From an archaeon (lineage in GTDB: Archaea > Nanobdellota > Nanobdellia > Woesearchaeales > SM23-78): 64,000 nt of DNA. Positions 14,727 through 52,383 of the stretch are shown one piece after another. Position 1 is the first letter of the stretch, and each line of letters opens with the position of its first letter. Position numbers and translations under genes: made by a program. The stretch is taken from NCBI GenBank assembly GCA_043801165.1, contig JAZDMG010000007.1, forward strand, positions 70,155-134,154, in the 5' to 3' direction. The notes under the pieces were generated by a model. That model was not told the DNA's origin. It did no database searches and was given only the letters and a program-made list of their open reading frames with translations.

Positions 14727-17700
14727 ATGGCAAATAAGCTATTTTATTCGTACACTAAATATTATAATATACCCGGCATATCACTAGGCATAGCTATTTC
14801 TGACCAAAAGCGAGCAAAGAGCCCGGTCTCAGACAATCCAAGGAATCACGTTCTTTTAGGGGAGGGTTGCGCCAAGAGCTCAGCGTGGAAGCAAAAGCAT
14901 CCAGGCGCAGCCCTCTTTTTTTACCTATTCACGCTGATAGCCATAATTCTCCAGGCAGTCCTGTGCAGCGCCCAAGGACAGATAGCATTGGACAAATCTC
15001 AGTATGGCGTCGGGGAGACTGTCAAGATAAAACTGATGAACGCAAGCCAGGACTTCGCACTCAATATAATCTCAGATAACGATGTCTTCAGGTATTCTGG
15101 TGAGCTCAAGGCAGAGATGGACTTCTACCCGACAAAGGAGGGGCAATACACGGTGCGCCTGAATGATCCTGGCAATAATATCCTGCTTGATGAGAAAACA
15201 TTCAGCGTCTCATACGATTACACGATAAGCAAGCCGGCTCTACTCTACACAGACAAGAAAGAATATCTCCTGGATGAGGCAGTGCAGATATTCGTGAACA
15301 CAAGCAGCGGAGGAGAATCAGCGGCTGAGCAGGAGCTCAGGATAGTATCAGACAAGGAATCGCTGAAATACCTCGGCGCCATAGACAGCCCGATCTCGTT
15401 CCTGCCACGCTATGCCGGCGCATACCAGCTCAAATTGATAAATCGATTCGTGCCTGTGGCCACCGCAGAATTCCTTGTGCTGAACCAGAGCATCAACGAA
15501 GCTGCCGCAGAGATCCCTGAGCAGCCAGAGACCCAGGCAACGGATAACAGGAGCTTTGAGAAGAACCAGACAGAGACAGGCATGGTCGGCATAGGCGTCC
15601 TGGACCAACAATCGACAGCCCAGAAACAGCAGGATGTTGGACTAGGAGCGATAGTAATCGACGACCAGCTGCTGCTGGCAGAGGACCAAGAGCTGGAGCT
15701 GCAGGCACCGAGAGGATTGAACATCACGCTGCCTTTCAGGTTAGAGCTCAGGGCAAGGCGCGGAGCCACGGCGAATGAAGACATAAGGAACAGCATAAGC
15801 ATCCTGAGAGCAGAAGGGACAAGATACGACGTCGAATACCTGCCTAGAAAAGCAAACATAAAAAGCATAGTTTTCAACAATCTCAAGCTGGACAGCGACA
15901 GGAGCTTTGATTTCGACGAGGTCACCCTCAAGAAAGAAGAATCCAAAAAAGAGCTGAGGGACAAGAAGATAGTCAAATCATTCTTCATAGACACAGCCCA
16001 GCTGAACTACACCAACGGCACAATAACAGCGATAGCGCTGGGCAAAGAGCTCTGGAAATGCAAAGAATGGAACTCCACCAGGGAGATATGCCTCGGCAAC
16101 TGGACTAAGGTACAGGACCTAACCCCTGGGAAGGAATACGAGATCATAATCACACCAGAAGACCCTGCCTACGCAGAGACCGGAGTGGCCAGCATAAACA
16201 CCAAGAAGCCAATATACCATCCGAACGAGACTGCAGAGATGATAATGGTTGTCCTGAACACAAAAGGACGCCTTGTCTCTAACGCGCAGGTGACGTTGTC
16301 AATTACAGCGCCTGACAGCACAACAACGACGCTAACCACAGCCAGCCAGGGCATAAAAGAGAGCAGCAGGGGGATATATGAGGCAGCCTACAGCAAGACA
16401 GGGCTGGAAGGCGAGTATTCGATGTTCGTCACAGCAACAGGATGGAACGTCAACTACAGCATGCAGTCGAGCTTTGAGGTGAGAGAGTTCTATGAGTTCG
16501 ACATCATAAGGGATACGCCTGTGACAATAGACCCCTGGCAGGGACCGTTCCAATCACGCATACAGCTGATGCCATACATCAACGTAACAAGCTATGATTT
16601 CACAGAAATCCTCCCCTCAGAGTTCGTTGTCACAGACAGCGGAGGAGCGCAGCAGAGGACAATAAACAACCAGACTTTCTTGACCTGGACAAACCTGAGC
16701 AGTGTAGAAACAGTTGGATACGAAGCCAACGCCCCACTGATAACACCGAACCTCTATGCGCTGGGCAGGTCATTCATAACCTATTTCGCCCAGGGAACAA
16801 ACATGCTGTTCACAGAAGCAAGGAACTGGTTCCTGGCTATAGATCCGCTGCAAAACCTCTTCTTCGATGATTTCGAGTCTTGGGGATGCAGGACAACAGG
16901 AGCGCCTATAGCAGGAAACAACTGCTTATACAGCGCAAATTGGGGACAGTTCACCAATTGCAACACTCCATCGACAGCAAGGTTCTGCACATCGGACGAT
17001 GGAAAAGAAGGGAATCACACCGCCAACTCCTATGCTATACAGATGACCAACTGGGTGATGGACTCAAGTGCAGGCCTATGGTTCACGCTAGATCCAAGCA
17101 TATACGACGACATAAACGTGAACGGATACATCTACGGAGCAAGCCTAGACAACGTCAGAGAATACTGCGCGATATGGGCAAGAGACTCAAACTCGATAGC
17201 ACCGATATACAACTGCACAAACACAATATGCACCGGAACAGACACAACCCCGCAGACAGATCTATACATCTATTTCAATATAAACCTGAGCAGCCTGAGC
17301 GGGATAAACCTTAGCGAAAGCAACATATCAGTGCACATAGGAGGAGCGCACTCAAACACAGCAGACTACTGCTTCTTCGACAGGATAAACATAACAGGGA
17401 TAGCATACCCGCCGAACATAACAAACCTGACCAACCCGCCAAACAACACCGTAACAAACCTGACAACAATCCAGTTCAACTTCACTGTCAACGCGACAAA
17501 AGACCTGGTGCTACCTAACTGCACGCTGTGGACAGACATGAACGGAAGCTGGATGGAAAACAGCACAATTTACAACGTGAGCAGGAACAGCATAACCAAC
17601 ATAACATTAGCAGACCTGCCAGACGGGACATTCAAATGGAATGTGATATGCTACACAAGGACAGGGCTCTACGACTGGTACGACAGCAACTACACATTGA

Positions 17701-20700: not shown

Positions 20701-23700
20701 CCAACATAACAATAGACCGGAATGGGCCCACAATCAACCTTGAAAGGCCATCAAATAACTCATACAACACAGGAAACCAGACATTCTACTTCAATGTAAC
20801 AGACATCGCATCGAACATCAACAACTGCAGCATAATGCTTGACGGATCAATAAATCAGACCACATACAACCCTCAACAGAACATCTCCCTCAATTTCACG
20901 ATAAACGACAACACAGTAGGAAGCCACACATGGAGGATTGACTGCACCGATGGTGTAGGAAACGTGAACAGCAGCGAGACACGGACATTCACAGTGGACT
21001 TGACAGGGCCCGTAACCATCCTCAACAGGCCGCCGGCAGCAGACCCGAAGATGTACGGAATATACATTGTGAATGCCTCGGCGACAGACAGCGGAGTAGG
21101 AAACATCAGCACGGTGGCATTCGAATACAGGGAAAACAGCACCGCGGAATGGATATCAATATGCAACGCGACGCAGGGGCCAGCATATAACTGCAGCCTG
21201 GACACGACAGCGCTGGCCGACGGGACAACATACGAAGTAAGAGCATACGCGACGGATATATTGAACAACACAGGTTCCCCAAGCGTAAGATACTCTGTAA
21301 CCATAGATAACAACGGGCCAGCAATCGACGGCCTAAGCCCAGACCCAGGCTCCATAGACAACGACGGCAACGTGACATTCAGCTACCTAGTGGATGACAT
21401 AGGAAGTGGAGTAGCCAACTGCAGCCTGATGATAAACGGGTCTATCAACCAGACCAGCTTCGCTGTGCCAGAAGGAAGCGAACAATACTTCTACCTATAC
21501 AACCAGAACGACACCACCCTCAACTGGAGCATAAAATGCTGGGACGACTTCACAGCACAACCACACATGGCACAGACAAACCCGAGAACGCTCTACATAC
21601 TCATACTATACGTGCTTAAAAGCAACGTCACAACAGACAAGAAGACCTACGAGACAGGAAACCAGCAGTCAGACAGCATCAACATAACAACCACCACCAT
21701 CGACTACTCAAACCAGAGCATAGAAGCATCAGCAATCACAGACATAATCAAGACATCGGGCGAAAGCAGGAACATCTGGTGGAACACCACCTGGAGATAC
21801 AGGCTGAGGAACACGCTCACAGAGACAAGCAACAAAACAAGGAAAGACCAATGGGTCCACCTGTCATTCATGCTAGACCCTGACTGCAGCAACCTAGCGC
21901 ACAAGAACAGCCTGAGGCTGATACAGGACCCGGGAACGAACGTAGGCTTCAACCAATGGAACATAACCTACTGCACAGACACAAACTACATCAAGAGCCT
22001 GTGGGTGAGCTTCAGGCTGAACCTGACAGCAAACAGCAACACAAACATATACCTATACTACGACAATGCAAGCACAATCACAAAGACATCAAAAGACCAG
22101 GGTCCGATGAGGATGATCTGGGTGAGCGCAGGAGGGACAGGAAACGCACCCCTGCAGAACACAATAAAAACAGACCTTAACAGCGCGCTCTCGGCGCTGG
22201 GATTAGACCCAGGCACCTTCTATGACAACCTGAACACAACCGCGGCAAGCGCTGATTTCACGCTCACCAACATGCAGAATTACTCCATAGTATACTATGA
22301 CAGCGCAGCAAAATACAGCTCAAGCTGGTATACTACAGAAGCCAACGCAATGTTCCAATTCGTAAACCAATCAGGAAACCTATTCCTGACAGGACAGGAG
22401 CTAGGATACCAGGCAAACGCCGATGGATGGCTATACAATGGAGTATTCACAAACCTGACCCACGCAAGCGCAGGATACGTAGACAACGCGAACCCAACAA
22501 CATTCACAGTGGCAGCAAACCACCCGACGACAAAATACCTGGGTATGGGAACAACGGTGAGCGTGGCAGGGGATTACGAAGACGGATACACAACACTGGC
22601 AGGAAGCACCTCGGTCAGAATACTCAACTGGACAGGAAGCGCCACTCCGACAGCAGGAACAGCCAACGACGGGCTGAATGATCCCAGCTGCACAGGATTC
22701 TGCGGAAAGACGGTGTACTACTCAGGCCTGTTCTATATCTCAGCCACACAGGGAATACAGAACGTGACAGCAAGAAGCAGATTACTACAAGGGACAATAG
22801 AATGGTTCCTGAACAACAGCCTTGCAGAATCAAGGGGGCAGCAGGAGCAATGGATAGCAAGGAACACGACCGACACAACAGGAGCGCAAGGGCTATGGTC
22901 ATGGATACACCCTGCCGCAAGCATGAACGGAAGCTACCAGGCAGTGAGCCAAGCATCAAAAACAAAATACAACGACGCGACCAACTGGACTGGATTCAAC
23001 GTGACCATGGACAGGACGCCGCCAAACATCACGCTGAACGGGCCGCAAAATGAAAGCGAAGCCAACAGCTCAGTAACATTCTCATACTACGTTAATGACA
23101 CCCTCAGCACAGTACTGAACTGCACACTATTCATAGACGGCAATAAAGAAGACTCAGACCCGACAATACAGGAAGGGGTCATACAGTACTTCTACCCGAG
23201 AATCCCGACAGGAGGCTGGCATAATTGGAGCGTCAACTGCACAGACTACTACGGAAACATAGGTGCATCAGAGACATGGACAGTGTTCATCAAACCACCA
23301 GACCTCACAGTCACCAGCAGCGGCATAGCATTCAACAACACAACGCCGAGGGAAGGAGACAACATCACGATAATAGCCACTGTGCACAACACAGGAGGAT
23401 CAGACGCAGAGAACGTCAAGATGCAGTTCTACCTAAGAGACCCAGACACCGACGGAGTGCAGATAAACGGAAACTTCACAGCCAACATAACAGACATAAA
23501 TGGGGCACAGCCAAACGCGACATTCAACGTAAGCTGGGTGACAACAGGACCAGGACCGTTCAGCATATACGTTATAGTTGACCCTCCGACAGCCACCAAC
23601 GGAACGATTTTCGAATCAAACGAGACCAACAACAAGGCATACAACACCCTGAACGTGCCAGCATACAACCAATTCTACGGCCTGGTGAAGAACAATGTAT

Positions 23701-24224
23701 ACCTGAGCGACGAAAACAACAACTCGCTCTTCTATTACCTGAACATAACAAACGTCACTGGGAATATCTTCGCCATAGATGGAAGAAGCACGGTAGACTT
23801 CTCGGCGCTGCAATCGATGGGAAGAGATATCAACAACAACACCGCAGCCAATGACTTCAACGATACAGACACAGCACTCAACATGACCAGCTACAATGAT
23901 TCCATCAGAAGGACTTACACCGCAGGCACAGACACTCCCCTGACAACAAAAACATTCACATTTTACACCAAGACAACGCAAAACACTCCAATAATCAACA
24001 GCACCAACACAACCAGCTTTGTCACAGGAATACTATGGGACACAAGCGACGGAGGAACACAATACAACGGAACCCAGGACATCGCATTCATAACAGAGAT
24101 TAGCCAGAACAAGACAGGATCCTACGGCACATACGACTATGAGATAAAGGTACCGGTGAACCTGAAGAACTACGAAGGCCCAGGAAGCAGCGTCGCACTC
24201 TACTGGGAGATAAAAGAGCCATGA
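14727..24224 (+). CDS. Giant secreted/surface glycoprotein 1 (3165 aa)
   Basis: Single uninterrupted 9.5-kb ORF. Hydrophobic signal/anchor at aa 61-80. Very dense N-x-S/T sequons. Contains a jelly-roll-like module, a 38-Cys module, tandem Ig-like modules, a DUF2341-like opening (WWNTTWRYR), CARDB and a family-A-like C-terminal domain. No C-terminal TM or sorting tag (ends ALYWEIKEP). Start uncertain (60-aa leader before the signal). Confidence 0.9.
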   Translation: MANKLFYSYTKYYNIPGISLGIAISDQKRAKSPVSDNPRNHVLLGEGCAKSSAWKQKHPGAALFFYLFTLIAIILQAVLCSAQGQIALDKSQYGVGETVKIKLMNASQDFALNIISDNDVFRYSGELKAEMDFYPTKEGQYTVRLNDPGNNILLDEKTFSVSYDYTISKPALLYTDKKEYLLDEAVQIFVNTSSGGESAAEQELRIVSDKESLKYLGAIDSPISFLPRYAGAYQLKLINRFVPVATAEFLVLNQSINEAAAEIPEQPETQATDNRSFEKNQTETGMVGIGVLDQQSTAQKQQDVGLGAIVIDDQLLLAEDQELELQAPRGLNITLPFRLELRARRGATANEDIRNSISILRAEGTRYDVEYLPRKANIKSIVFNNLKLDSDRSFDFDEVTLKKEESKKELRDKKIVKSFFIDTAQLNYTNGTITAIALGKELWKCKEWNSTREICLGNWTKVQDLTPGKEYEIIITPEDPAYAETGVASINTKKPIYHPNETAEMIMVVLNTKGRLVSNAQVTLSITAPDSTTTTLTTASQGIKESSRGIYEAAYSKTGLEGEYSMFVTATGWNVNYSMQSSFEVREFYEFDIIRDTPVTIDPWQGPFQSRIQLMPYINVTSYDFTEILPSEFVVTDSGGAQQRTINNQTFLTWTNLSSVETVGYEANAPLITPNLYALGRSFITYFAQGTNMLFTEARNWFLAIDPLQNLFFDDFESWGCRTTGAPIAGNNCLYSANWGQFTNCNTPSTARFCTSDDGKEGNHTANSYAIQMTNWVMDSSAGLWFTLDPSIYDDINVNGYIYGASLDNVREYCAIWARDSNSIAPIYNCTNTICTGTDTTPQTDLYIYFNINLSSLSGINLSESNISVHIGGAHSNTADYCFFDRINITGIAYPPNITNLTNPPNNTVTNLTTIQFNFTVNATKDLVLPNCTLWTDMNGSWMENSTIYNVSRNSITNITLADLPDGTFKWNVICYTRTGLYDWYDSNYTLTIDARPPIKTITSIDKDTSEPWNTTNRNPVINITLNKNGTCRLSTTDSNFTSIPSYYNCTGAKTANISCTYTGTQLNIGTNYLYVICNDTSGHNDNTTSNLDITFEVLCDAHSDCDSTSYCDYTQYCHSDELAGYPCNTQAHTGLAWNDVCGNGINRYCVNDSSYSYTGWYCTGSATDCVYNDQGKSYALGETLCISGVNDYRNCSNSNLWSSQVDCAEQFDAHNQSATYHPGLYCGYYGTDQSCVNGTSGGCSGASTACNPYIYNQTITACGSTLEECDWGCGAGCDAGNSTAPGIASGTCYYNKNCNINCLWSQSSEGAPSFCINDNDGGSCAYSNRTDPTTSDTCYWNASCQNTVGATLNNNSILMADYCDYCNQYGNQTGQYSPAPNTSCSSNCANSGTIYYDSGGTPADRSNDCSNGITIMLGDTLTLGDIWNGSAPAQCDAAECNLDCGTMIGTCSAGICNCTDQDNPQLILIWPDNLTWTNNASVQFRYNVTDISSQIKNCSLIINNVVNRTNTSINKSVAEQRFIANMTNGTSNWSIRCYDNSSSFNLNQSETRILGIDTTIPPLLNPRINGTNFTINKNICLNITANDTYSGIKDIIATIIPPGQPAENITLYDNATTSCDGANGNGVYSAVYALIFSGTYNWSSAYAIDDANNQNLTYPNLRWNVTTGGIVNVSMNYPTANIKINESEYNYFYVQNCTAACSNSGSSNCTDVTVSIEYYLAGSYETINTTTTDLISNKTSYSCGNVTRGSNCTTTFNVTAGPGNKSWPVRCRADGVNSATAFSISRNVTINDHPTAGILYPISSQWLKGITYINASISFDSDGLIINYTFSYDNNTAFSSPSMICNGTSNNCTWNTTAQNQCQNNSMSCYLRVTVTDNDRLTNSTYIIVGFDTQGPTTIIGNPQNFTNITTSQYTVNATVTDNEIGTINLVIFEYRENSTASWKQACNDSDRTAPYECSWNTTSLLDGKTYEVRAYSTDGLNNTGAADTRTNITIDRNGPTINLERPSNNSYNTGNQTFYFNVTDIASNINNCSIMLDGSINQTTYNPQQNISLNFTINDNTVGSHTWRIDCTDGVGNVNSSETRTFTVDLTGPVTILNRPPAADPKMYGIYIVNASATDSGVGNISTVAFEYRENSTAEWISICNATQGPAYNCSLDTTALADGTTYEVRAYATDILNNTGSPSVRYSVTIDNNGPAIDGLSPDPGSIDNDGNVTFSYLVDDIGSGVANCSLMINGSINQTSFAVPEGSEQYFYLYNQNDTTLNWSIKCWDDFTAQPHMAQTNPRTLYILILYVLKSNVTTDKKTYETGNQQSDSINITTTTIDYSNQSIEASAITDIIKTSGESRNIWWNTTWRYRLRNTLTETSNKTRKDQWVHLSFMLDPDCSNLAHKNSLRLIQDPGTNVGFNQWNITYCTDTNYIKSLWVSFRLNLTANSNTNIYLYYDNASTITKTSKDQGPMRMIWVSAGGTGNAPLQNTIKTDLNSALSALGLDPGTFYDNLNTTAASADFTLTNMQNYSIVYYDSAAKYSSSWYTTEANAMFQFVNQSGNLFLTGQELGYQANADGWLYNGVFTNLTHASAGYVDNANPTTFTVAANHPTTKYLGMGTTVSVAGDYEDGYTTLAGSTSVRILNWTGSATPTAGTANDGLNDPSCTGFCGKTVYYSGLFYISATQGIQNVTARSRLLQGTIEWFLNNSLAESRGQQEQWIARNTTDTTGAQGLWSWIHPAASMNGSYQAVSQASKTKYNDATNWTGFNVTMDRTPPNITLNGPQNESEANSSVTFSYYVNDTLSTVLNCTLFIDGNKEDSDPTIQEGVIQYFYPRIPTGGWHNWSVNCTDYYGNIGASETWTVFIKPPDLTVTSSGIAFNNTTPREGDNITIIATVHNTGGSDAENVKMQFYLRDPDTDGVQINGNFTANITDINGAQPNATFNVSWVTTGPGPFSIYVIVDPPTATNGTIFESNETNNKAYNTLNVPAYNQFYGLVKNNVYLSDENNNSLFYYLNITNVTGNIFAIDGRSTVDFSALQSMGRDINNNTAANDFNDTDTALNMTSYNDSIRRTYTAGTDTPLTTKTFTFYTKTTQNTPIINSTNTTSFVTGILWDTSDGGTQYNGTQDIAFITEISQNKTGSYGTYDYEIKVPVNLKNYEGPGSSVALYWEIKEP
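16826..17410 (+). other. Giant 1: conserved jelly-roll-like (ConA/MAM-like) module
   Basis: Opens FLAIDPLQNLFFDDFESWG and closes ADYCFFDRINITGIAYPP. The FDDFE...W ... F(F/Y)(D/E)xI pattern resembles lectin/MAM-type beta-sandwiches (inference from the pattern only). Near-identical at nucleotide level to 44931-45512. Confidence 0.5.
18024..19103 (+). other. Giant 1: Cys-rich module (38 Cys in ~360 aa by my count)
   Basis: Runs from CDAHSDCDSTSYCDYTQYCHSDE to CGTMIGTCSAGICNC. The Cys pattern is conserved in giant 2 at 46126-47211. Confidence 0.8.
19121..21600 (+). repeat. Giant 1: tandem array of two alternating Ig-like module types (approximate bounds)
   Basis: Type 1: ...F.(Y/F)NV.D..S.I.NCS(L/I)...G..NQT ... 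W.I.C.D..GN.N.SE.R. Type 2: ...V.A(T/S).TD...G.I..V.FEYREN(S)T..W..(A/I)CN....P(Y)(E/N)C.W(N/D)T..L.DG.TYEVRAY(S/A)TD..NNTG. Confidence 0.7.
21777..22080 (+). other. Giant 1: DUF2341-like segment
   Basis: Opens WWNTTWRYRLRNTL and ends IYLYYDNAS. The W-x-N/D-x-x-W-x-Y/Q-R opening and the ...YYxN ending are my recollection of DUF2341. Not verified by search. Confidence 0.45.
23295..23657 (+). other. Giant 1: CARDB domain
   Basis: PPDLTVTSSGIAFNNTTPREGDNITIIATVHNTGGSDAENVKMQFY...IYVIVDPP...IFESNETNNKAYNTLNV is the canonical CARDB pattern (PDL...G....I...V.N.G...A..V.V ... D....V.E.NE.NN). Confidence 0.8.
23664..24221 (+). other. Giant 1: C-terminal family-A-like domain (186 aa)
   Basis: YNQFYGLVKNNVYLSDENNNSLFYYLNITNVTGNIFAIDGRSTVDFSAL aligns with A3 WKAYVGNVSGSFVLQNVNNRSIYEWPSVSVASGKLFISRNASVNFSGV. 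The C-terminal YDYEIKVP...ALYWEIKEP aligns with YDFQAIIAE...YYFYVELD. It is more divergent than the free copies, and the two family Cys are absent. Confidence 0.6.
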
Positions 24225-24300
24225 TGAGGGGCATGATAGAACACACGATAAAACATAAAGTTTAAATATCAAATCAGGACTAAAAAGATAAAAAGGAGAG

Positions 24301-35383: not shown

Positions 35384-35384
35384 G

Positions 35385-38262: not shown

Positions 38263-38295
38263 CTTACCATCTCAAAATTTACACCGTGTAACGCA

Positions 38296-38305
38296 ATTAG
38301 TATAC
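38296..38305. promoter_or_regulatory. ATTAGTATAC element downstream of the B2 TATA box
   Basis: Matches the left 10 nt of the 27092 palindrome and sits in the same orientation and on the same side of the TATA. Confidence 0.4.
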
Positions 38306-38332
38306 GATAATGTATATCAGTATCTATACAAG

Positions 38333-38347
38333 TATATAAATGTTTCG
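38333..38347 (-). promoter_or_regulatory. BRE/TATA promoter for B2 (37309..38262)
   Basis: The minus strand reads CGAAACA-TTTATATA, the same 15-mer as at 27117-27131, ~70 nt upstream of the ATG. Confidence 0.6.
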
Positions 38348-38421
38348 TTTTCTCATGGTTAATGATAACTATCTTTCTAAAATGCACCAACCCATTTTGC
38401 GCTTTAAATAACCATGAAAGT

Positions 38422-43005: not shown

Positions 43006-46000
43006 ATGCGTAATTGCCTTTTGATAAATAGATTTATGATTATTCTAGCCTTAATCATGCTGCAGTTGGTGTCCGTGGCTATCGGCGCAGTATCAAGTCA
43101 TGATCCGATAACACTTGATAAGCAAAGCTATCTCATCGAGGATACTGCTGTCCTGAGCATCAACATCAATCCTTCTCAATATGACATTTATGAGCTAAGC
43201 ATCACTGATTCAAGTGGCAAGTACACCTTTAGAGGCACTTTTAATCCGGAAATGTTCTTCTACCCTACAGAGGAAGGCATCTATACCGCAGCCCTGGTTG
43301 AACGATCAACCGGGGCTATTTATTATTCTAAGTCATTCAATGTCAGCATTGATGAGAGCAAAGCCAGACGGCGGGTGATCGAGAACGGGATTGCCAGGGG
43401 GGCTGACAGCGTAATCAATGCGACGAATCTCTCTTCACCCGAAAGCAAGAATCAAAGCCATGGCCAGAATCAGGCATTGCCTATTCTTCCGGCAATCAGC
43501 CAGGACCAGGCGTATATCTCTCTGGAGAAGGATAGGTTTTTCCTCGAGGAAAAGATCAGAGTCATCTTAAAGAGCGATGTGGTCAGTAGACAGGATTCAT
43601 ACCATTTGTTCTACTCGTCCAATGGAGAGACCAAGCGTTACATGGGTGATTTGTCATTCATCGAGTTCACACCTTCAGGCATAGGGACGCATGAGCTCCT
43701 GCTGACAGATTCTGATGATAAGCTATTATATTCCAAGAGTTTCAGCGTCACAGCTACAGAAGATGATGAGGACTTCACCAATCCGGATACGAACCGAATA
43801 CTGATACGAGCTCATGGCGGAGCACGTCAAGAGAGCAAGATCATCATCCATGATGAATTTGGCAGGGAAATCAATCTCAGCAGCATCCCTAACAAAAAGT
43901 TATCTGCTTCTTCAGGTTTGACCAACAGATTCAGAGCTGAGGTAATGCCTAATCACGGTCTGAAGAGCATAATATTCAATGGCCTTGCTTTGGGCAATTC
44001 GAGTGATTTTGATCTTGGCTTTGAGGAAATTCCCCCTGAGAACATCCGTGTCAAAGACAGGAGAGCCATCAAATCTTTTGCTATCGATGCCTCTAAACTT
44101 AATTTCATCTCAGGGGCAGCCGTCGGCAGGGCTGTCGGGACCGAGCTTTGGAAGTGCAAGAACTGGTCTTTTGAATCTCAGCAATGCGACGGCACCTGGG
44201 TCAAGGTAATGGATCTCGTGCCTGGCAGGGAATATCAGATAGCGATAACGCCAGATGACCCTGGCTACACAGAGACAGGAGTCGCTGCGGTCAACTCTCT
44301 GAAGCCGATCTATCACCCTGGAGAGGTCGCTGTCCTGTGGATGGTCGTCCTGGATACGAAAGGCCACCTAGTCACAGGCGCAGACATCTCTCTCAATGTT
44401 ACTACGCCATTGAATAATACTATGATGCTGACAACCGCCAGCGGAGAAATAAATGAGATCATGAAAGGAGTCTATGGAGCGAACTTCTCAGATACGTATT
44501 CTGAGGGGAACTACACGCTCTTGATGAGTGCGAAATCATCTATGGTCGACAGCTCATTGTATTCAAATTTCGAGGTCAAGGAGGAATATGATTTCGACAT
44601 AATCAGGAATGCTCCGATAACAACAGACCCATTCACAGGCCCATTTGAATCTTCTCTCACGATAAGACCAGAAGATGTCAACAGCGAGATAGAAAATTAT
44701 AATTTCACAGAGATACTTCCGTTAGACTTCGATATAGTGTCGGCGCCCAATGCCCTGATCTCGCATGATGAAACAAAAAGATTCCTCTTCTGGAGCAATC
44801 TGAGTGGAGAATCAGTCGTCAGTTACATTGCCCAGCCTCCAAAGATTACGCCAAATCTTTTCATGCTGGGAAGATCGTTCATCGACTATGTCAGCGACGG
44901 AATCATCAGGCGGTTCATCGAGGCCAGGTTCTGGTTCCTGGCTATAGATCCGCTGCAAAACCTCTTCTTCGATGATTTCGAGTCTTGGGGATGCAGGACA
45001 ACAGGGGTACCTGCAGCAGGAAACAACTGCTCATACAGCGCAAATTGGGGAGAATTCACCAACTGCTACACCTTACCAGCAGCCAGATTCTGCACAACGG
45101 ACGATGGGCAGGAAGGAAACCACGCAACATACGCCATCCAGATGACCAACTGGAGGATGGACGCAAGCGCAGGGCTATGGTTCTCGCTAGATCCAAGCAT
45201 ATACGACGACATAAACGTGAACGGATACATCTACGCAGGAAGCCTAGACAACAACGCAGAATACTGCATGATATGGGCAAGAGACTCAAACTCAATAGCA
45301 GCAATTTACAACTGCACGAACGGAGCAGCATGCGACGGAACAACACAGACACCGAATATATCAAACTATGTGAAATACGACGTAAATCTGAGCGGCCTGA
45401 GCGGGATAGACCTAAGCGAAAGCAACATATCAGTGCACATAGGAGGAGCGCACTCAAACACAGCAGACTACTGCTTCTTCGACAGGATAAACATAACAGC
45501 AATAGCATATCCGCCGGATGTCACCAATCTCACCTATCCTGCCAATGGTACCACTGTCAATCTGACAACCTTCGACCTTAATTTCACTGTCAACGCCTCA
45601 AGAGACCTGGTCCTGCCCAACTGCACGCTATGGACCGACCTGAATGGGAGCTGGGCGGCAAACATCACAATATACAATGTCAGCAGGAACAACATAACCA
45701 ACATATCAGTGAACCCGATAATAGACGGGGCATACAACTGGAGCATAATATGCTACACGAGAACTGGCTTATATGATTGGTACGACAACAATTTCACATT
45801 CCTTGTCAATGCAAGGCCGCCAATCAAAAATGTCAGTAGCGTAGACGGCGACGTGAGCGCCCCCTGGAACACCACCAACAGGAACCCTGTGATAAACCTG
45901 AGCCTCAACAAGAACGGAAACTGCAGGTTCAGCTTCAGCAGCGAGTCATATGAAGATATGAGTGATGATTATGATTGTTCAGGGGATGGCACGGCATCAA

Positions 46001-49000
46001 TCAGCTGCACATATACAGGGGCTCAGCTAGACATAGCAACATATTCTTTATATTTTGCATGCAATGACACCTATGGCCACGCAGACAACGTCTCGACAAA
46101 CCTAAGGGTGGACATCGATGTGCTTTGTGACTCCCATTCAGACTGCCTGAGCAACGAATACTGCGATTACACCCAAAACTGCCACTCAGACGAACTGCCA
46201 GGATATCCATGCAACACACAAGCTCACACAGGACTTGCATGGAATGACGTATGTGGTAATGGAGCCGACAGGTACTGCGTCAACGACTCAACATACAGCT
46301 ACACAGGATGGTACTGCACAGGATCAGCAACAGACTGCGTATACAACGACCAAGGAAAAAGCTATGCGCTGACCTATAATCTTTGCATAGGCGGCACCAA
46401 CGACTATAAGACCTGTGATGCAGGAAACCAATGGGATGCGACGGTGGATTGCGCAGACCAATATGACCCATTCAACCAAAGCGCAACAACGCACAGCGGA
46501 GAATATTGCGCGTATTACCCTGACCAGCAGTCCTGCAGCAACGGGACTGCCGGAGGATGCTCAGGGATCTGGACTGGATGCGATTATCACATCTACAATC
46601 AGGCTATACAGACCTGTGGCAGCTCGATGGAGGACTGCGACCTTGGCTGTGGGGCAGGATGCGACAGCACGAACAGCACCGAGCCGACAATCATCTCAGG
46701 CACCTGCTATTATGATAGGAGCTGCAATGGCATATGCGCATGGAGCCAGAGCCAGGAAGAAGCTCCGCTATCCTGCATAAATGATGATGATGGAGGAGCA
46801 TGTGTATACAGCAATAGGACAGACCCAAGCATCCAAGGCATATGCTATTGGAACACGACATGCGAAAATACATTAGGAGCAACGCAAAACAACAACAGCA
46901 TACTCCGAGCAGACTACTGCGACTTCTGCATCTTATCTGGAAACAACAGCGGAGAATACTCGCCAGCTCCGAATACGAGCTGCAGCTCCGGTTGCGAAAA
47001 CAGCGGAACAATATACTATGATACAGGATCAACACCACTTAACCGATCAGATGACTGCAGCAATGGAATGACTATCATACTGAGCGACACACTTGCAACA
47101 GGAGACATATGGAACGGAAGCGCACCAGCAGTATGCGACGACACAGAATGCACAGATGACTGCGGAACATTATTCGGCGCATGCAACATCACCACGGGAA
47201 ACTGCGAATGCACAGACATGGACAACCCGATCCTGATTATTATATGGCCGGAGGATGGGATGTGGACCAACAATGCGAGCGTGAGATTCAGGTATAACAT
47301 CACAGATATAAGCTCAGGGATAAAGAACTGCTCGCTGATAGTGGATGGTGATATCGACCAGACCAATTCGACAATCGACGAGAGCCTCAATGAGCAGGAG
47401 TTCATGCAATCATTCGCCAACGGGACTATACTGTGGAGCATCAGCTGTTTCGACGATAGCACACAATATAATAATAACCGGTCAGACAACGGCATCCTGG
47501 GCATCGATACTGTGGCGCCGCCAGTATTATTCCCTAGCATCAACGGAAGCGATTTCAACATCAACCAGAAGATATGCCTTAACATAACAGCGAACGATAC
47601 CTACGCAGGGATAAAAGATATCATCGCGGAGATAAAACCTCCGGGCCAGCCAGCAGAAAATATAAGCTTGTATGACGATGCGATGACAAGCTGTGATGGA
47701 GTGAACGGTGACGGAGTGTTCTCTGCGTCTTACACATTGATATTCGCAGGTGTATATGATTGGATCACAGCCTATGCCATAGACTATGCTGACAACCAGA
47801 ACATCACAGACCCGGGATTTGACTGGAATGTCAGCGCTGGCGGCATACTGAACCTCACGATGCCGCTGCCATCGGGTGACATCAAGATAAATGAATCAGA
47901 ATCCAATAATTATTTCCTGCAGGAATGCAACGTCACCTGCTCAGACCAGGGAAATGCCTGTGACGATGTCATCCTTAGTGCAGAGTTCAATGATGGCTCA
48001 TCCTTCCTAGCCATCAACACTTCATCGACAGGATTGGTAAACGACCAGGATGATTATGCCTGCGGCAATCTTGCCATCGGCCAGAGCTGCGCCGCAACAT
48101 TCAACATAACCTCGGGAGCTGATTCTGGGAACAACACCTGGCCTGTGAGATGCAGGGCAGATGGCAGCACCAGCGCAACTACGTTCTCAGGAGCTAGAAA
48201 CATCACCATAAACAATCATCCTGACGTCAACATCAGCCATCCCCAGAACAGTGACTGGCTCAGTGGGGCGATGAATATCAACTCAAGCCTCAGCTTCGAC
48301 AGCGACGGCACAATCTCAAATTACCTGTTTGAATACGATGACAAAGCAGACTTCGACAGCCCCAGCACCATATGCGACGACGCAAGCAGCAGCTGCACAT
48401 GGAACACGACCACACAGGACCAGTGCCAGAACAACAGCATGGACTGCTATCTCAGGGTGACTGTGACAGACAATGATGGACTGAGCAACAGCACATACAT
48501 AACCATCGGGTTTGATACTGAGGGTCCTGTGACTAGCATAACCAATCCTGGGAACTTCGCTGCGACCGCATCTGATTTGATGACGCTTGAGGCGACTGCA
48601 ACAGATGACCAGATCGGAATAGTCAACCAGCTATCCTTTGAATACCGCCGGAACAACACAGACTCATGGAAGCCTGCCTGCAATGATACCACTGAGCCAT
48701 TCTCATGCAATTGGAACCTGGTCGCATTGGTTGACGACAGCACATATGAAGTGAGGGCCTTCGCGGAAGACTATTTCAACAACACAGGAAACATAGATGC
48801 CATCACCAACATTACCATAGACCGCTCGTCCCCGTTGACAAGCCTGGAGAGCCCCCAGCAGGGATTTGCGACCACAGAGCACAACATCACTTTCTATTAC
48901 AATGTATCTGACGCATTATCAGGCATACTGAACTGCGAGCTCATAATCGATGGGAATGTGGACCAGACCAACTCAAGCGTGCAAGAGGGCATCAGCCAGA

Positions 49001-52000
49001 GCTTCGCAGCCACATTGGTAGAAGGCAGCCATCTCTGGAGTGTAAACTGCACAGACCTGCTAGACAACAGGAACGCCTCTGAAGCAAGGAACATCACCAT
49101 CGATAACTCAGGGCCGACTGTGGTGCTCGATAGGCCTCCTGAGAATGAGAACATCTCTGACTCAGCAAGCTATGTCGTGAACGCCACGGTCACAGACGAG
49201 GGAGCCGGAAACATAAGCATGGTGACCTTTGAATACAGGAAAGGCTCTTCAGGGAACTGGACCTTTGCCTGCAATGATGATAGGCCTCCCCTATTCGACT
49301 GCTCCTGGAACCTTGTGGGGCTAGAGGATGGGGACGACTACGAAGTTATGGTTTGGGCGAACGATACGCTTGGGAACAACGGCACCAATGATACGCACAC
49401 AGGGATAAAGATCGACAATAATCCCCCTAACATCACCGTAATAAGCCCGGGCAACAACACCGTTGACGGAGACGGCGACCTCACTTTCAGCTATATCGTC
49501 AATGACTCAGGATCCGTGGTCTGGAACTGCAGTCTGATATGGAACAACACCATCAACCAGACCAATTCATCCATAATCGAGAACCAGGAGATGTCGTTCA
49601 GCCTGCTCAATATCTCCGACGGCAGGTACAACTGGAGCATCAACTGCACAGACCAGTTCAACCACAAAAGCACAATCGGGAGGATGAACCTCAGCGTCAA
49701 CAGGCAGAACAGGATCTTCATCAATGTCAGCACCGACAAGACGCTCTACCATAAAGGGAACCAGGCTGTCGAGAATGCGACAATCAACACCACCTCGAGA
49801 GATATATTCAACGGTTCTGTCAATGATGTGAACATAACGAATGACCTCATCAAGGTATACAACAGATCAGAGCCAGCAGGACCCTGGTGGAACACCAGCT
49901 GGGCGCAGAGGAAGCCGATCTTCATAAGCAGCAACTCTGCAGTAAACCAGACCAACATCACAGTAACAATCAATGTCACAGGCCTGAATGGCAACATAAC
50001 AAACTGCACCAAGGAGATCAGAGTCGCCAATGCCTACGGGGCGCTCAGCGAAGTCAATGTGATATCTGGAGATAATTCAGATTCCTGCTATATCGGGTTC
50101 AAGGCCAATGTGAGCGCCAATGCAGTAAACCAAAGCAATTATTATGTCTACTACAACAATTCAAACGCCGTCAATCCAGGGTATAATAATTTCGTGAATT
50201 TCAGCTATACGCTCTTCTTTGAGAATTTTGATGGAGCAGGATGGACCCAGATAGCCACGGTCTCCCCATCGACGACCTGTGCCGGAGGCTACGGATCCTT
50301 CACCAGCTGCCTCGCATACGCAACCGATAATGATTTCGCAGCCACCAGCAGTGGAACAGAGATAAGCGGGCTCTACAAGTTCGTGATGGACCAAAGCTAC
50401 CCTTGGGTTGCCAATAGGGGAGTATGGTTCAACACCAGCCCCACGACAGCCTGCGGAGGGAACAGCTGCGATGACATAAGGGTCACAGGATATGCAGCCA
50501 CCGGCTCCGTCGATACCGCCTCTGAATTCTGCAGGGTATGGGCAAGGAACACGACGACAACAGCATATGCGACCATATACGAATGTGTCGGGCCAACCCC
50601 CATATGTGAGTTCGCCAGGACAGATATCGCCCCCGCTGTAGCAGCTAACTATACCTTCTTCAATAAGACGCTTAAATCAGATCTCGGCCTCGGAATAGGG
50701 AATTATATAGCTGTGCACATAGGAGGCAATGGTACAGCTGCTGACGACAACTGTTTCTATGAAGACATCAGGGTGACAGGGATCAGGTACCAGGCTCTCA
50801 ACATCACTGCCGCGAGGATAGGTGACCCGCAGGAATGGATTGTGAGAAACACCAACAGGACAGATTCCAACGGCCTCTGGAGCTTCATCCTCGACATTGC
50901 AGGCATAGGCATTGGAAACTACTCTGCCGCATCATTGGGCCAGAAGACAGGATACGGCGATGCATATAACTTCACATATTTCGAAGTGACCCTTGACAAC
51001 ATAGGCCCGAACATAACTCTCACGAGCCCTGACAATGACACGAAGACAAAGGAGCAGATGGTGCCATTCAACTACATGGTCAACGACAGCCTGAGCGGGA
51101 TAAGCAACTGCTCATTGATCATCGACGGCAAGATAAACGACACAGACTCGTCGGTACAGGAGAGCATACCTAAGTACTTCGGACCGAAAAACATCTCAGA
51201 AGGATGGCATAACTGGAGCGTCAACTGCACCGATGACTACAACAACACAGGAGCTTCAGAGAGGAGGACTATCCTGGTTGACATCACTCCTCCGAACATC
51301 ACCATGGGCAGGCCTACCAACGGAACATGGGTAATAGCCCCTTACCAAGGATTCACCTATCTGGTCAATGCCAGCGCGCAGGATAATTATGGGATGGGCT
51401 TTGTGCAATTCATGTATCGCGTGAACAGCAGCGATTCGTGGAAGGATATCTGCAACGACACAGGAGCGCCTTACCAGTGCATCTGGAATCTCAGCGGGCT
51501 CAACAATGGAGCATACTACGAGGTGCTCGCCTACGCCAATGATAGCGTCGGGAACATAGGCATCAACAGCACCCACTTCAACATAACAGTCCGCACAAAA
51601 GTGATAAACGTGACATATCTGATTGCTGATGACAGCACCGCGATTCCCATCGATCAGATCGACCTGATAGCAGGATCTGTCAGATCAGCCTTCTGCAATC
51701 TCACCATAATATCAGGGGATGACTACACCAGCATAGAAAGCGTCAATGCAACTCTTTATTCTGCGACAACAACACTGGGCGCTGTAGATTCCAATAGGAC
51801 CCATTACACCAATTCAAGCTGCTCATTGGTCAGTGGAGGAGGAGATAGTGCAGATTATTTCTGCTCTTTTGACCTGTTTTACTACGCAATAAATGGTTCT
51901 TGGAGCTGCACAGCGTTCGCGAGAGATAACTATACCGCAAGCAACAGGAGCGACCAGACAACGGTCAACCAGCTATTCGCAATAAACATGACTAGCGATA

Positions 52001-52383
52001 TCATCAACTACAGCAGCCTGCAGCCAAACCAGGTATCGTCAGAAGTCACCATCGACATGGTCAATATAGGGAACATGCCGATGAACATAAGCGTCTTCGG
52101 ATTCGGCGGAGAGAATTACAGCATAGGAAAGAATCTCTCTATGATCTGCAGCATCAACAACATCAGCATAAGCTCTGAGAGATATTCTACATCAAGCATT
52201 AGCTATGACTCAAAGAGCAACCTGAGCTCGACGCCAAGGGATATCGGATTGACAATCCTTCCGACAAACGATACTCTCGGCCCTAATGTCAATACCACCT
52301 ACTGGCAGTTCATGGTGCCTGTGAGTTCGCATAGCCTTGGCCTATGCAACGGCAGCGTCGTCTTCATGGCTCAGTCTCCATGA
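43006..52383 (+). CDS. Giant secreted/surface glycoprotein 2 (3125 aa), paralog of 14727..24224
   Basis: Single 9.4-kb ORF with an N-terminal signal peptide (FMIILALIMLQLVSVAIGA). Same module order as giant 1 through the Ig-like array, with long tracts of nucleotide identity. It differs in the post-DUF2341 module and ends in a family-B domain (...LCNGSVVFMAQSP). No C-terminal TM or sorting tag. Confidence 0.9.
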   Translation: MRNCLLINRFMIILALIMLQLVSVAIGAVSSHDPITLDKQSYLIEDTAVLSININPSQYDIYELSITDSSGKYTFRGTFNPEMFFYPTEEGIYTAALVERSTGAIYYSKSFNVSIDESKARRRVIENGIARGADSVINATNLSSPESKNQSHGQNQALPILPAISQDQAYISLEKDRFFLEEKIRVILKSDVVSRQDSYHLFYSSNGETKRYMGDLSFIEFTPSGIGTHELLLTDSDDKLLYSKSFSVTATEDDEDFTNPDTNRILIRAHGGARQESKIIIHDEFGREINLSSIPNKKLSASSGLTNRFRAEVMPNHGLKSIIFNGLALGNSSDFDLGFEEIPPENIRVKDRRAIKSFAIDASKLNFISGAAVGRAVGTELWKCKNWSFESQQCDGTWVKVMDLVPGREYQIAITPDDPGYTETGVAAVNSLKPIYHPGEVAVLWMVVLDTKGHLVTGADISLNVTTPLNNTMMLTTASGEINEIMKGVYGANFSDTYSEGNYTLLMSAKSSMVDSSLYSNFEVKEEYDFDIIRNAPITTDPFTGPFESSLTIRPEDVNSEIENYNFTEILPLDFDIVSAPNALISHDETKRFLFWSNLSGESVVSYIAQPPKITPNLFMLGRSFIDYVSDGIIRRFIEARFWFLAIDPLQNLFFDDFESWGCRTTGVPAAGNNCSYSANWGEFTNCYTLPAARFCTTDDGQEGNHATYAIQMTNWRMDASAGLWFSLDPSIYDDINVNGYIYAGSLDNNAEYCMIWARDSNSIAAIYNCTNGAACDGTTQTPNISNYVKYDVNLSGLSGIDLSESNISVHIGGAHSNTADYCFFDRINITAIAYPPDVTNLTYPANGTTVNLTTFDLNFTVNASRDLVLPNCTLWTDLNGSWAANITIYNVSRNNITNISVNPIIDGAYNWSIICYTRTGLYDWYDNNFTFLVNARPPIKNVSSVDGDVSAPWNTTNRNPVINLSLNKNGNCRFSFSSESYEDMSDDYDCSGDGTASISCTYTGAQLDIATYSLYFACNDTYGHADNVSTNLRVDIDVLCDSHSDCLSNEYCDYTQNCHSDELPGYPCNTQAHTGLAWNDVCGNGADRYCVNDSTYSYTGWYCTGSATDCVYNDQGKSYALTYNLCIGGTNDYKTCDAGNQWDATVDCADQYDPFNQSATTHSGEYCAYYPDQQSCSNGTAGGCSGIWTGCDYHIYNQAIQTCGSSMEDCDLGCGAGCDSTNSTEPTIISGTCYYDRSCNGICAWSQSQEEAPLSCINDDDGGACVYSNRTDPSIQGICYWNTTCENTLGATQNNNSILRADYCDFCILSGNNSGEYSPAPNTSCSSGCENSGTIYYDTGSTPLNRSDDCSNGMTIILSDTLATGDIWNGSAPAVCDDTECTDDCGTLFGACNITTGNCECTDMDNPILIIIWPEDGMWTNNASVRFRYNITDISSGIKNCSLIVDGDIDQTNSTIDESLNEQEFMQSFANGTILWSISCFDDSTQYNNNRSDNGILGIDTVAPPVLFPSINGSDFNINQKICLNITANDTYAGIKDIIAEIKPPGQPAENISLYDDAMTSCDGVNGDGVFSASYTLIFAGVYDWITAYAIDYADNQNITDPGFDWNVSAGGILNLTMPLPSGDIKINESESNNYFLQECNVTCSDQGNACDDVILSAEFNDGSSFLAINTSSTGLVNDQDDYACGNLAIGQSCAATFNITSGADSGNNTWPVRCRADGSTSATTFSGARNITINNHPDVNISHPQNSDWLSGAMNINSSLSFDSDGTISNYLFEYDDKADFDSPSTICDDASSSCTWNTTTQDQCQNNSMDCYLRVTVTDNDGLSNSTYITIGFDTEGPVTSITNPGNFAATASDLMTLEATATDDQIGIVNQLSFEYRRNNTDSWKPACNDTTEPFSCNWNLVALVDDSTYEVRAFAEDYFNNTGNIDAITNITIDRSSPLTSLESPQQGFATTEHNITFYYNVSDALSGILNCELIIDGNVDQTNSSVQEGISQSFAATLVEGSHLWSVNCTDLLDNRNASEARNITIDNSGPTVVLDRPPENENISDSASYVVNATVTDEGAGNISMVTFEYRKGSSGNWTFACNDDRPPLFDCSWNLVGLEDGDDYEVMVWANDTLGNNGTNDTHTGIKIDNNPPNITVISPGNNTVDGDGDLTFSYIVNDSGSVVWNCSLIWNNTINQTNSSIIENQEMSFSLLNISDGRYNWSINCTDQFNHKSTIGRMNLSVNRQNRIFINVSTDKTLYHKGNQAVENATINTTSRDIFNGSVNDVNITNDLIKVYNRSEPAGPWWNTSWAQRKPIFISSNSAVNQTNITVTINVTGLNGNITNCTKEIRVANAYGALSEVNVISGDNSDSCYIGFKANVSANAVNQSNYYVYYNNSNAVNPGYNNFVNFSYTLFFENFDGAGWTQIATVSPSTTCAGGYGSFTSCLAYATDNDFAATSSGTEISGLYKFVMDQSYPWVANRGVWFNTSPTTACGGNSCDDIRVTGYAATGSVDTASEFCRVWARNTTTTAYATIYECVGPTPICEFARTDIAPAVAANYTFFNKTLKSDLGLGIGNYIAVHIGGNGTAADDNCFYEDIRVTGIRYQALNITAARIGDPQEWIVRNTNRTDSNGLWSFILDIAGIGIGNYSAASLGQKTGYGDAYNFTYFEVTLDNIGPNITLTSPDNDTKTKEQMVPFNYMVNDSLSGISNCSLIIDGKINDTDSSVQESIPKYFGPKNISEGWHNWSVNCTDDYNNTGASERRTILVDITPPNITMGRPTNGTWVIAPYQGFTYLVNASAQDNYGMGFVQFMYRVNSSDSWKDICNDTGAPYQCIWNLSGLNNGAYYEVLAYANDSVGNIGINSTHFNITVRTKVINVTYLIADDSTAIPIDQIDLIAGSVRSAFCNLTIISGDDYTSIESVNATLYSATTTLGAVDSNRTHYTNSSCSLVSGGGDSADYFCSFDLFYYAINGSWSCTAFARDNYTASNRSDQTTVNQLFAINMTSDIINYSSLQPNQVSSEVTIDMVNIGNMPMNISVFGFGGENYSIGKNLSMICSINNISISSERYSTSSISYDSKSNLSSTPRDIGLTILPTNDTLGPNVNTTYWQFMVPVSSHSLGLCNGSVVFMAQSP
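44931..45512 (+). other. Giant 2: conserved jelly-roll-like module (counterpart of 16826-17410)
   Basis: Runs from FLAIDPLQNLFFDDFESWG to ADYCFFDRINITAIAYPP. Includes 75-nt (44931-45005) and 85-nt (45415-45499) tracts identical to giant 1 by my reading. Confidence 0.5.
46126..47211 (+). other. Giant 2: Cys-rich module
   Basis: Runs from CDSHSDCLSNEYCDYTQNCHSDE to CGTLFGACNITTGNCEC. Collinear with giant 1 18024-19103 and highly similar at nucleotide level in places (e.g. 46296-46370 vs 18196-18270). Confidence 0.8.
47231..49700 (+). repeat. Giant 2: tandem array of alternating Ig-like modules (approximate bounds)
   Basis: Same two module types as giant 1, e.g. FEYRRNNTDSWKPACND..EPFSCNWNLVALVDDSTYEVRAFAEDYFNNTG and FEYRKGSSGNWTFACNDDRPPLFDCSWNLVGLEDGDDYEVMVWANDTLGNNG. 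Confidence 0.7.
49885..50165 (+). other. Giant 2: DUF2341-like segment
   Basis: Opens WWNTSWAQRKPIFISSNS and ends NYYVYYNNSNA. Same caveat as for giant 1. Confidence 0.45.
50212..50793 (+). other. Giant 2: second jelly-roll-like module, absent from giant 1
   Basis: LFFENFDGAGW ... CRVWARNTT ... AVHIGGNGTAADDNCFYEDIRVTGIRYQ parallels the first module (FFDDFESWG ... CAIWARDSN ... SVHIGGAHSNTADYCFFDRINITG). Confidence 0.55.
51580..52380 (+). other. Giant 2: C-terminal family-B domain (267 aa)
   Basis: Collinear with B1/B2 over the whole domain: NRTHYTNSSCS / DNNTHYTTGNCS; FYYAINGSWSC / WYYANNGSWRV; VNIGNMPMNISVFGFGGEN / VTNFGNLPINVTVYGFGGDN; SSERYS / SNERYS; NTTYWQF / NSTYWRL; LGLCNGSVVFMAQSP / FGICNGTVVFSATGA. 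Confidence 0.85.

Follow-up and report, generated by a model that had tools for sequence, protein, structure and literature searches.

The window analysed here is a stretch of 64,000 nucleotides on contig JAZDMG010000007.1 from an archaeon of the Woesearchaeales (assembly GCA_043801165.1). Its interval 14727-52383, about 38 kb, codes for two giant proteins, five members of a protein family which we term A, two members of a family B, membrane-anchored proteins and five small putative DNA-binding proteins. The cluster probably builds a cell-surface structure of a so far undescribed type. Going by its sequences, the locus would be the Woesearchaeal version of a cell-surface assembly locus, i.e., a core locus which is Sec-dependent and manages without an ATPase. 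Its features are the following (positions are those of the window, strand in brackets; aa, amino acids; TM, transmembrane; HTH, helix-turn-helix; Ig, immunoglobulin; HMM, hidden Markov model).

14727-24224 (+): giant1, 3165 aa, with repeats of Ig-like, MG2 and CARDB type; residues 62-80 hydrophobic
23655-24221 (+): C-terminal domain of giant1, about residues 2977-3164, a divergent family A domain according to profile comparison
24301-25302 (+): cc333, 333 aa, charged, probably coiled-coil, no signal peptide and no TM segment
25345-26109 (-): A1, family A, 254 aa, secreted
26227-27024 (-): A2, family A, 265 aa, of the type usually found beside cc333
27180-28136 (-): B1, family B, 318 aa; secreted, with a sequon density of 7.2 per 100 aa
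28151-28918 (-): A3, family A, 255 aa, the copy modelled with AlphaFold2
28986-29726 (-): A4, family A, 246 aa, of the type usually following wHTH217
29769-30422 (-): wHTH217, an ArsR/Lrs14-like winged helix inside the A array (Pfam HTH_5)
30679-31431 (-): A5, family A, 250 aa, of the type always following HTH171
31419-31934 (-): HTH171, two HTH repeats, sigma-70 region 4/homeodomain-like (Pfam HTH_23)
32108-33901 (+): p597, signal peptide, large ectodomain, C-terminal TM segment, cytoplasmic zinc ribbon; few sequons
33997-34416 (-): p139, basic, cytoplasmic; assigned to winged HTH by eye only
34540-34722 (+): s60, 60 aa, conserved, directly 5' of p225; "AbrB-like" by a motif seen by eye only
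34706-35383 (+): p225, secreted, internally duplicated
35361-37289 (+): p642, Cys-rich ectodomain, about three TM segments, cytoplasmic helical tail
37309-38262 (-): B2, family B, 317 aa, the copy modelled with AlphaFold2
38422-41217 (-): p931, signal peptide, Ig/FN3-like domains, long helical region, TM segment 801-819, cytoplasmic tail of about 110 aa
41281-41436 (-): s51, ribbon-helix-helix-like by weak profile matches, upstream of p931
41703-42935 (+): p410, signal peptide, beta-rich ectodomain, C-terminal TM segment, basic tail
43006-52383 (+): giant2, 3125 aa, Ig-like repeats, 162 sequons; paralogous to giant1
51523-52380 (+): C-terminal domain of giant2, about residues 2840-3125, a family B domain by BLAST and the B HMM

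Every open reading frame (ORF) named in a first-pass annotation of the window was recovered at its position by ORF listing and translation. Two genes were not listed there: p225, a sixth secreted protein, and cc333, which is conserved and not secreted. An ORF at 38259-38438 (59 aa) was dropped from the cluster because its conservation is limited to close relatives. For comparisons beyond the window, a collection with one genome per species was scanned, which yielded 252 relatives of B. From these 73 B loci (prefix L below) were kept; their ORFs were called and then labelled by the window proteins.

According to a hydropathy scan A, B and both giants have a single hydrophobic segment at the N-terminus and none at the C-terminus. 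In A and B the family conservation begins past this segment. The only possible start of giant1 is the ATG at 14727, 60 residues ahead of its hydrophobic segment (window 14727-14910); unlike giant1, giant2 begins directly with the signal segment. The proteins p597, p931 and p410 combine a signal peptide with a C-terminal TM segment. N-glycosylation sequons are dense in the anchorless proteins, with 7.2 per 100 aa in B, 5.3 in the giants (168 in giant1) and 2.8-4.4 in A; in the membrane-anchored and cytoplasmic proteins of the cluster the density does not exceed 1 per 100 aa. The first-pass annotation had seen neither an ATPase nor class III signal peptides nor sorting tags, and no C-terminal TM segment in the giants, and all of this stands. 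Pfam and NCBIfam detect no ATPase in any scanned ORF of the interval. Read from the sequences, no consistent [KR][GA] cleavage motif, the mark of a class III (prepilin) signal, lies ahead of the hydrophobic segments. C-terminal sorting signals of the PGF-CTERM/archaeosortase/sortase kind are absent from A, B and the giants, whose sequences stop 1-3 residues past the last strand. A type IV pilus/archaellum ATPase (PilB/ArlI) or platform protein (PilC/ArlJ) was found neither in the scanned ORFs nor among the recurrent ORFs of the 73 loci, and the same holds for any secretion machine or ATPase in the interval and among the recurrent genes.

The paralogies proposed at the outset lie far beyond chance. 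In an all-against-all BLAST giant1 and giant2 share 51% identity across about 2360 aa (E 0), the family A pairs of the window 28-46% (E 1e-16 to 1e-64), and B1 and B2 57% (E 1e-108). A further observation concerns the C-termini of the giants, each of which had been suspected to end in a domain of one of the small families. For giant2 the case is straightforward: the last 270 or so residues are 35% identical to family B (BLAST E 1e-42) and are matched by the B HMM with E 4.5e-92. The C-terminus of giant1 is not linked to family A by BLAST or the family A HMM. Yet when a profile of nine giant1-type C-termini, which come from related loci, is compared with a 57-sequence alignment of A, hhalign returns a probability of 98.3% with E 1.7e-14 over 167 columns, and the alignment extends to the terminal YFYxEL strand. 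Turned into an HMM, this nine-sequence profile matches A5 (1.7e-9), A3 (2.4e-6) and A4 (3.2e-5), and a giant homolog in locus L033 is matched directly by the A HMM (1.7e-6). Negative controls (p410 and p597 each compared with B, p225 compared with A, and A with B) gave hhalign probabilities of 0.7-42%, i.e., no relation in any of these pairs. Since two profile tests are positive and unrelated pairs reach only such values, the link between giant1 and A holds. Thus, on sequence comparison, a small-family domain closes both giants, B on giant2 and a divergent A on giant1. Giants with a terminal B domain are not confined to the cluster: two of 2427 and 2344 aa (L011:3560-10843 and L026:3809-10843) sit amid unrelated genes.

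Family B is large. At least 460 close relatives were found, and an exhaustive search gave 2154 representative clusters at E<=0.001; the collection searched holds no exact copy of the B2 of the window. About half of the 150 best representatives are stand-alone proteins of 300-330 aa, the remainder are fusions. In 77 of 77 fusions checked, ranging from 414 to 5014 aa, the B domain occupies the extreme C-terminus; it ends at most 10 residues from the last residue, with a median of 2. In ten fusions sampled the passenger regions consist of Ig-like or MG2 repeats only and contain no enzymes. No B fusion was found to carry an A domain as well. The AlphaFold2 model of B2 (predicted local distance difference test, pLDDT, 86) predicts two tandem Ig-like sandwiches of 7-8 strands each; a conserved N-terminal stretch, SWGPGPNYxNVSVRTTVN, is modelled at low confidence. 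The best Foldseek match of the model is the CfaE-CfaB fusion 3f83 (E 9e-5, template-modelling score 0.41).

Family A comprises at least 182 relatives, all of about 240-250 aa and all annotated as hypothetical; every relative with an organism name belongs to Woesearchaeota, Nanoarchaeota or an unclassified archaeal metagenome-assembled genome (MAG). A model of A3 built from the 57-sequence alignment (pLDDT 88, predicted template-modelling score 0.80) contains a beta-rich domain, two short helices and some 45 extended residues in front. Family A is thus predicted to be a single beta-rich domain of about 170 aa plus an N-terminal extension of about 45 aa, and its five paralogs, the order of which is fixed, would be ancient. 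Neither PDB nor BFVD gave a Foldseek match to this model at E<=0.001. The highest-ranking PDB entry, the cannula subunit CanA, is non-significant (E 0.54, template-modelling score 0.11-0.13), and viral jelly-roll capsid proteins are among the further non-significant matches. Asp, Glu and His residues are near-invariant or invariant at D152, H163, D205, D229 and E251. Pfam, NCBIfam, PHROGs and PDB sequences, searched also with profiles, hold nothing for A or B. Both are therefore, as first supposed, unnamed families, A also without a structural match, and neither maps to known monomeric enzymes or lectins in the sequence libraries or by Foldseek. A search of the literature on Woesearchaeota surface proteins, DPANN metaproteomics, cryo-electron tomography and complete Nanobdellota genomes retrieved no description of either family.

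A further setting of A came to light in four loci (L029:1226-5098, L061:388-4371, L014:1638-5381 and L045:1-3429). Here proteins of about 1150-1330 aa start with a signal peptide followed by an A-like domain; a TM segment lies near residue 600, and the cytoplasmic region finishes with the C-terminal domain of cc333, about 70 aa long, in one copy or two. These fusions tie family A to cc333. The A domain hence has three contexts: the free protein, the C-terminal end of giants, and the N-terminal end of a membrane-rooted protein linked to cc333.

The comparison of loci shows how firmly all of this is kept together. Across the 73 loci, from Woesearchaeota/Nanoarchaeota genomes, one set of genes recurs in a common order, sometimes beside XPD; A and B thus co-occur with giants in other genomes, and do so in a conserved order. 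Module 1 reads [A-type giant] - cc333 - A - A - (B) ... HTH171 - A - wHTH217 - A - A - B. Module 2 reads p597 / p139 / s60 - p225 - p642 / s51 - p931 - B - [B-fusion] - p410 - [B-type giant], and is followed by XPD in L017, L040, L044 and L071, as in the window. Same-strand adjacencies include A>A (57), A>B (54), wHTH217>A (41), p225>p642 (30) and HTH171>A (28), joined by B>p410 (17), p931>B (13) and p410>giant (7). From one to seven copies of A are present in 49 of the 73 loci. The A paralogs are positionally orthologous: after HTH171 the copy is always A5-like, after wHTH217 mostly A4-like, and beside cc333 mostly A2-like. The giants follow suit, those of A type adjoining A arrays and those of B type adjoining B and p410. 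Among distant loci the median identity is about 40% for A and B, 55% for XPD and 27% for p931.

The record titles of the 73 loci name Woesearchaeota, Nanoarchaeota, "archaeon", Methanosarcinales or Euryarchaeota. Titles of the form "uncultured Methanosarcinales archaeon" or "Euryarchaeota archaeon SM23-78" belong to L002, L003, L004, L014, L020, L029, L033, L037, L050, L052, L055 and L059. On records which bear the cluster the Methanosarcinales and Euryarchaeota labels are probably wrong.

The other recurrent genes of the loci are housekeeping genes (pyruvate kinase, aIF5B, Trm1), and the chromosomal neighbours XPD, PIN-KH ATPase and pyruvate kinase recur across distant genomes. In seven loci (L028, L056, L062, L064, L065 and others) a pyruvate kinase of about 480 aa is inserted between p642 and p931, which places the cluster among core genes. 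The GC content of the window is even with the flanks, and the flanks consist of ordinary chromosomal genes. Ordinary flanks, even GC and recurrence elsewhere characterize a core chromosomal locus of the lineage and not a strain-specific island. The term island, under which the cluster was first described, is thus doubtful.

Directly upstream, 3113-14486 form a signalling block with genes for a response regulator, a histidine kinase of 1360 aa, a HAMP protein and two solute-binding proteins of family 3, together with a 1002-aa multi-PAS/GAF protein in which neither a kinase nor another output domain was detected. Further downstream, at 59589-61172 (-), a single ORF of 527 aa contains the PyrB catalytic and the PyrI regulatory domains of aspartate carbamoyltransferase.

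For p139, p225, p410, p597, p642, p931 and cc333 searches of Pfam, NCBIfam, PHROGs and PDB sequences returned nothing usable. The gene of cc333 is present in 21 loci and keeps its place between an A-type giant and the A array (giant>cc333 nine times). p597 is found in 34 loci; its residues 417-495 weakly match archaellum stator proteins (ArlF E 8e-5, ArlG 5e-4), far under the curated cut-offs, a resemblance which may reflect the shared beta-sandwich fold alone. p642 occurs in 33 loci, and the hydropathy scan indicates about four hydrophobic segments. It contains 34 Cys residues and three CxDGxxNxxExxxDCGGxC repeats that lack any Pfam match. The internal duplication of p225 is marked by the motifs GWNLV(S/G)(F/Y) and GYWI. 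The most conserved gene of the cluster is p139, with 67-90% identity across loci in which XPD has about 55% and B about 41%; it populates 4257 clusters at 90% identity, and the named ones are all hypothetical proteins from DPANN-type MAGs. The libraries and PDB yield no match for it.

Of the five proteins first listed as DNA-binding, the ArsR-like and the double-HTH protein are supported by Pfam: wHTH217 matches HTH_5 (E 1e-5), with weak NCBIfam matches to ArsR and Lrs14, and HTH171 matches HTH_23 (E 5e-7). The ribbon-helix-helix assignment of s51, conserved in 27 loci, has weak signals only (Pfam ParG 3e-3 and ParD, PHROG HicB/Arc). The names "AbrB-like" for s60, conserved in 26 loci by tblastn, and "possible winged HTH" for p139 find no backing in profiles, and s60 has no Pfam or PHROG match. 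Neighbouring genes overlap at three points, HTH171/A5 by 13 nucleotides (31419-31431), s60/p225 by 17 (34706-34722) and p225/p642 by 23 (35361-35383), which suggests that the translation of small DNA-binding proteins is coupled to that of exported ones. As each sub-operon is headed by its own small DNA-binding protein, expression is probably regulated.

What does such a cluster make? Going beyond the observed gene content, homologies, topology signals, conservation and gene order, we infer self-association of A and B, attachment of giants by matching domains and tethering to the membrane. With moderate confidence we propose a structural role for A and B: they would be heavily N-glycosylated subunits that associate with themselves, and their domains would attach the giants to the structure and tether the structure to the membrane. 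A and B, exported and anchorless, would associate with themselves and with each other into an extracellular scaffold. The giant Ig-repeat proteins would be held on the cell when their C-terminal A or B domain co-assembles with free A or B, and the scaffold would be tied to the membrane through the co-conserved p931, p410, p597 and p642. Some lineages may possess an extra tie in the form of the fusion protein, in which a single TM segment joins the A-like N-terminus to a cytoplasmic domain of cc333 type.

As to geometry, we lean slightly towards a polar fibre or fibril, although a lattice or receptor docking is possible. The reason is the placement of the domains, always C-terminal on large passengers and N-terminal on the membrane-rooted A-like protein. 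Such strict polarity is what a head-to-tail fibre using N-terminal extensions requires, in keeping with the logic of the chaperone-usher tip adhesin and of the archaeal thread (PMC9715654). The best structural neighbours, weak or non-significant as they are, likewise are subunits of self-assembling fibres, CanA for A and CfaE-CfaB for B. Carried to its conclusion, this would be a new appendage free of ATPase and chaperone, a polar head-to-tail heteropolymer of five specialised A subunits plus B, nucleated or capped by giants by way of their C-terminal A or B domain, rooted by A-like/cc333-type proteins and serving as an organ of host or substrate contact; family A would then represent a new fibre-forming fold. 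We consider this detailed picture possible, yet doubtful.

Several observations weigh against the proposal of self-associating subunits and its fibre variant. The Foldseek match of B is generic for two Ig domains, and antibody Fab fragments score nearly equally. The conserved N-terminal strand of B, NVSVRTTVNVT, is retained in about half of the fusions, which is not the behaviour of a clean donor strand, as tip proteins would lack it. Neither an A-like nor a B-like domain was detected in p931, p410, p597 or p225, and tethering by these proteins is therefore suggested by gene order only. Finally, one would not usually expect five regulators to be embedded among the genes of an envelope layer that is constitutive.

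How does the cluster compare with known surface systems? The threads of Sulfolobus acidocaldarius (Saci_0406, Saci_0405) are exported by Sec with a class I signal, are heavily N-glycosylated and consist of a beta-sandwich with an N-terminal extension; their gene cluster contains no ATPase, chaperone or usher, and a paralog in the same operon was proposed as cap (PMC9715654). The Sec class I signal, the dense N-glycosylation and the lack of an ATPase recur here, which is an analogy only and does not denote membership. PDB profile searches were empty at E<=10, and no thread entry is among the top 50 Foldseek matches of A or B. Unlike the threads, the Woesearchaeal cluster has two unrelated subunit families, at least five conserved paralogs, a subunit domain on giants, four co-conserved membrane proteins and five regulators. 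Chaperone-usher pili (FimH, CfaE) share with it several small paralogous subunits per operon and a large adhesin whose C-terminal domain is homologous to the subunits. However, neither PapD nor an usher has a Pfam match here, the organism, an archaeon, has no outer membrane, the passengers extend to 5000 aa of Ig-like repeats, and the B sandwiches are complete in the model. The cannulae of Pyrodictium (CanA; 7uii, 9h8b) resemble it in having secreted, small, beta-rich subunits with several paralogs, and polymerisation of cannulae needs no chaperone (bioRxiv 10.1101/2024.12.30.630787); the fold match to CanA, however, is non-significant and no sequence relation was found. For TasA/camelysin (peptidase M73) and AbpA bundling pili there was no Pfam match at E<=1, no PDB sequence match and no entry among the Foldseek matches listed.

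The SlaA/SlaB S-layers of Sulfolobales are a further point of comparison. They combine an anchorless glycosylated outer protein with a bitopic stalk in a core envelope function, and the stalk resembles p931 in its beta domains, helical region and C-terminal TM segment. On the other hand, no homology was detected, many more components are present here, regulators included, and the outer subunits are small (mature A about 220 aa, B about 290 aa), with domains reused on giants. Among DPANN archaea, cls.004306/NEQ255 was listed as a DPANN-specific secreted protein adjoining the S-layer-like arCOG02487 and as a priority unknown (Makarova et al., PMC6393860). B or p225 beside p410 fits its published description, by which alone the two were compared. 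More generally, the neighbourhoods described by Makarova and colleagues (PMC5898192, PMC6393860) resemble the cluster in that uncharacterised secreted families, DPANN-wide, stand beside Ig-like membrane or S-layer-like proteins. The arCOG01314 system (PMC5898192) differs; its DUF4350, MoxR ATPase and vWA families were not found in the interval by Pfam. By analogy, the closest in working would be a two-component S-layer or those archaeal filaments that depend on Sec only and need no chaperone, i.e., threads, cannulae and bundling pili. By sequence, fold and accessory genes the cluster belongs to none of these systems in any of the comparisons carried out.

This leaves four other explanations. 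One is a two-dimensional S-layer in which the lattice consists of B, with or without A, p931 is a SlaB-like stalk, and the giants are occasional decorations set into the lattice. The core locus with its housekeeping neighbours, the wide distribution of B and p139, the heavy glycosylation signal of the anchorless A and B, and the build of p931 with signal peptide, beta domains, long helical region and TM segment all agree with it. Nevertheless, we rate a lattice as rather unlikely: known archaeal S-layers use one or two proteins, compared with at least six conserved structural paralogs plus five regulators here, neither sequence similarity to solved S-layer proteins nor such a protein among the Foldseek matches listed for A and B was found, and a lattice does not require the strict N- or C-terminal placement of A and B domains. 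Alternatively, docking might take place without any polymer. A and B would then be monomeric anchor modules, akin to cohesin-dockerin or SLH modules, which bind a membrane receptor (p931, p410, p597 or p642), and free A and B would act on the same receptor sites as competitors, caps or regulators. A B domain that is always C-terminal on varied passengers looks like a sorting or anchoring domain, B adjoins p931 and p410 in many loci, and its model has two complete sandwiches of 7-8 strands with none obviously missing. Against this, free A and B genes far outnumber fusions per locus, and five A paralogs in a fixed order would be wasteful as competitors. Further, a membrane-anchored protein itself bears an A-like domain, which argues for a homotypic A-A contact and not for a separate receptor. 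To docking, taken as a whole, we concede a small chance.

It is improbable that A and B act in soluble form, as secreted effectors or lectins which, for instance, bind a host or scavenge nutrients, and that the resemblance to the giants is due to domain shuffling with no physical link. Signal peptides without an anchor on A, B and the giants would suit such a role, and the near-invariant D152, H163, D205, D229 and E251 of A could form a ligand or metal site; yet no similarity to an enzyme or lectin family was seen by sequence or fold, and neither the rule of domain position nor the tight, lineage-wide linkage with membrane proteins is expected of free effectors. A mobile or viral origin, in which the small ribbon-helix-helix, AbrB-like and winged HTH genes derive from an integrated element and A is a capsid-like jelly roll, is hardly conceivable. 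The many small DNA-binding genes and the jelly-roll capsid proteins among the non-significant Foldseek matches of A invite the thought. However, an integrase, a terminase, a replication gene and a tRNA-flank signal are all lacking, PHROGs match neither A nor B, A has no BFVD match, and GC is uniform with the flanks. Conserved synteny with the same chromosomal neighbours in distant genomes effectively refutes this origin.

We favour A and B as self-associating structural subunits. The first-pass annotation had framed the cluster as an apparatus of adhesion or host contact. This is doubtful, considering the core locus, the very wide distribution of B and p139, and the identity of A and B; their median of about 40%, against 55% for XPD, means slower evolution than exposed proteins would lead one to expect, and it suits a variable adhesin no better than a structural component of the envelope.

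Few uncultured archaea are as abundant and as diverse as the tiny Woesearchaeota. To our knowledge, the build of their cells and the way in which they contact a partner are essentially unknown. The cluster provides a lineage-wide parts list: two orphan structural families together with candidate membrane anchors and regulators. It further suggests a rule for the attachment of giant surface proteins, i.e., an A or B domain at the C-terminus. Should A and B polymerise, the small set of archaeal surface systems known to assemble by themselves with Sec only (threads, cannulae, bundling pili) would gain a further member, and this would explain how anchorless proteins of 3000-5000 aa stay on a DPANN cell.

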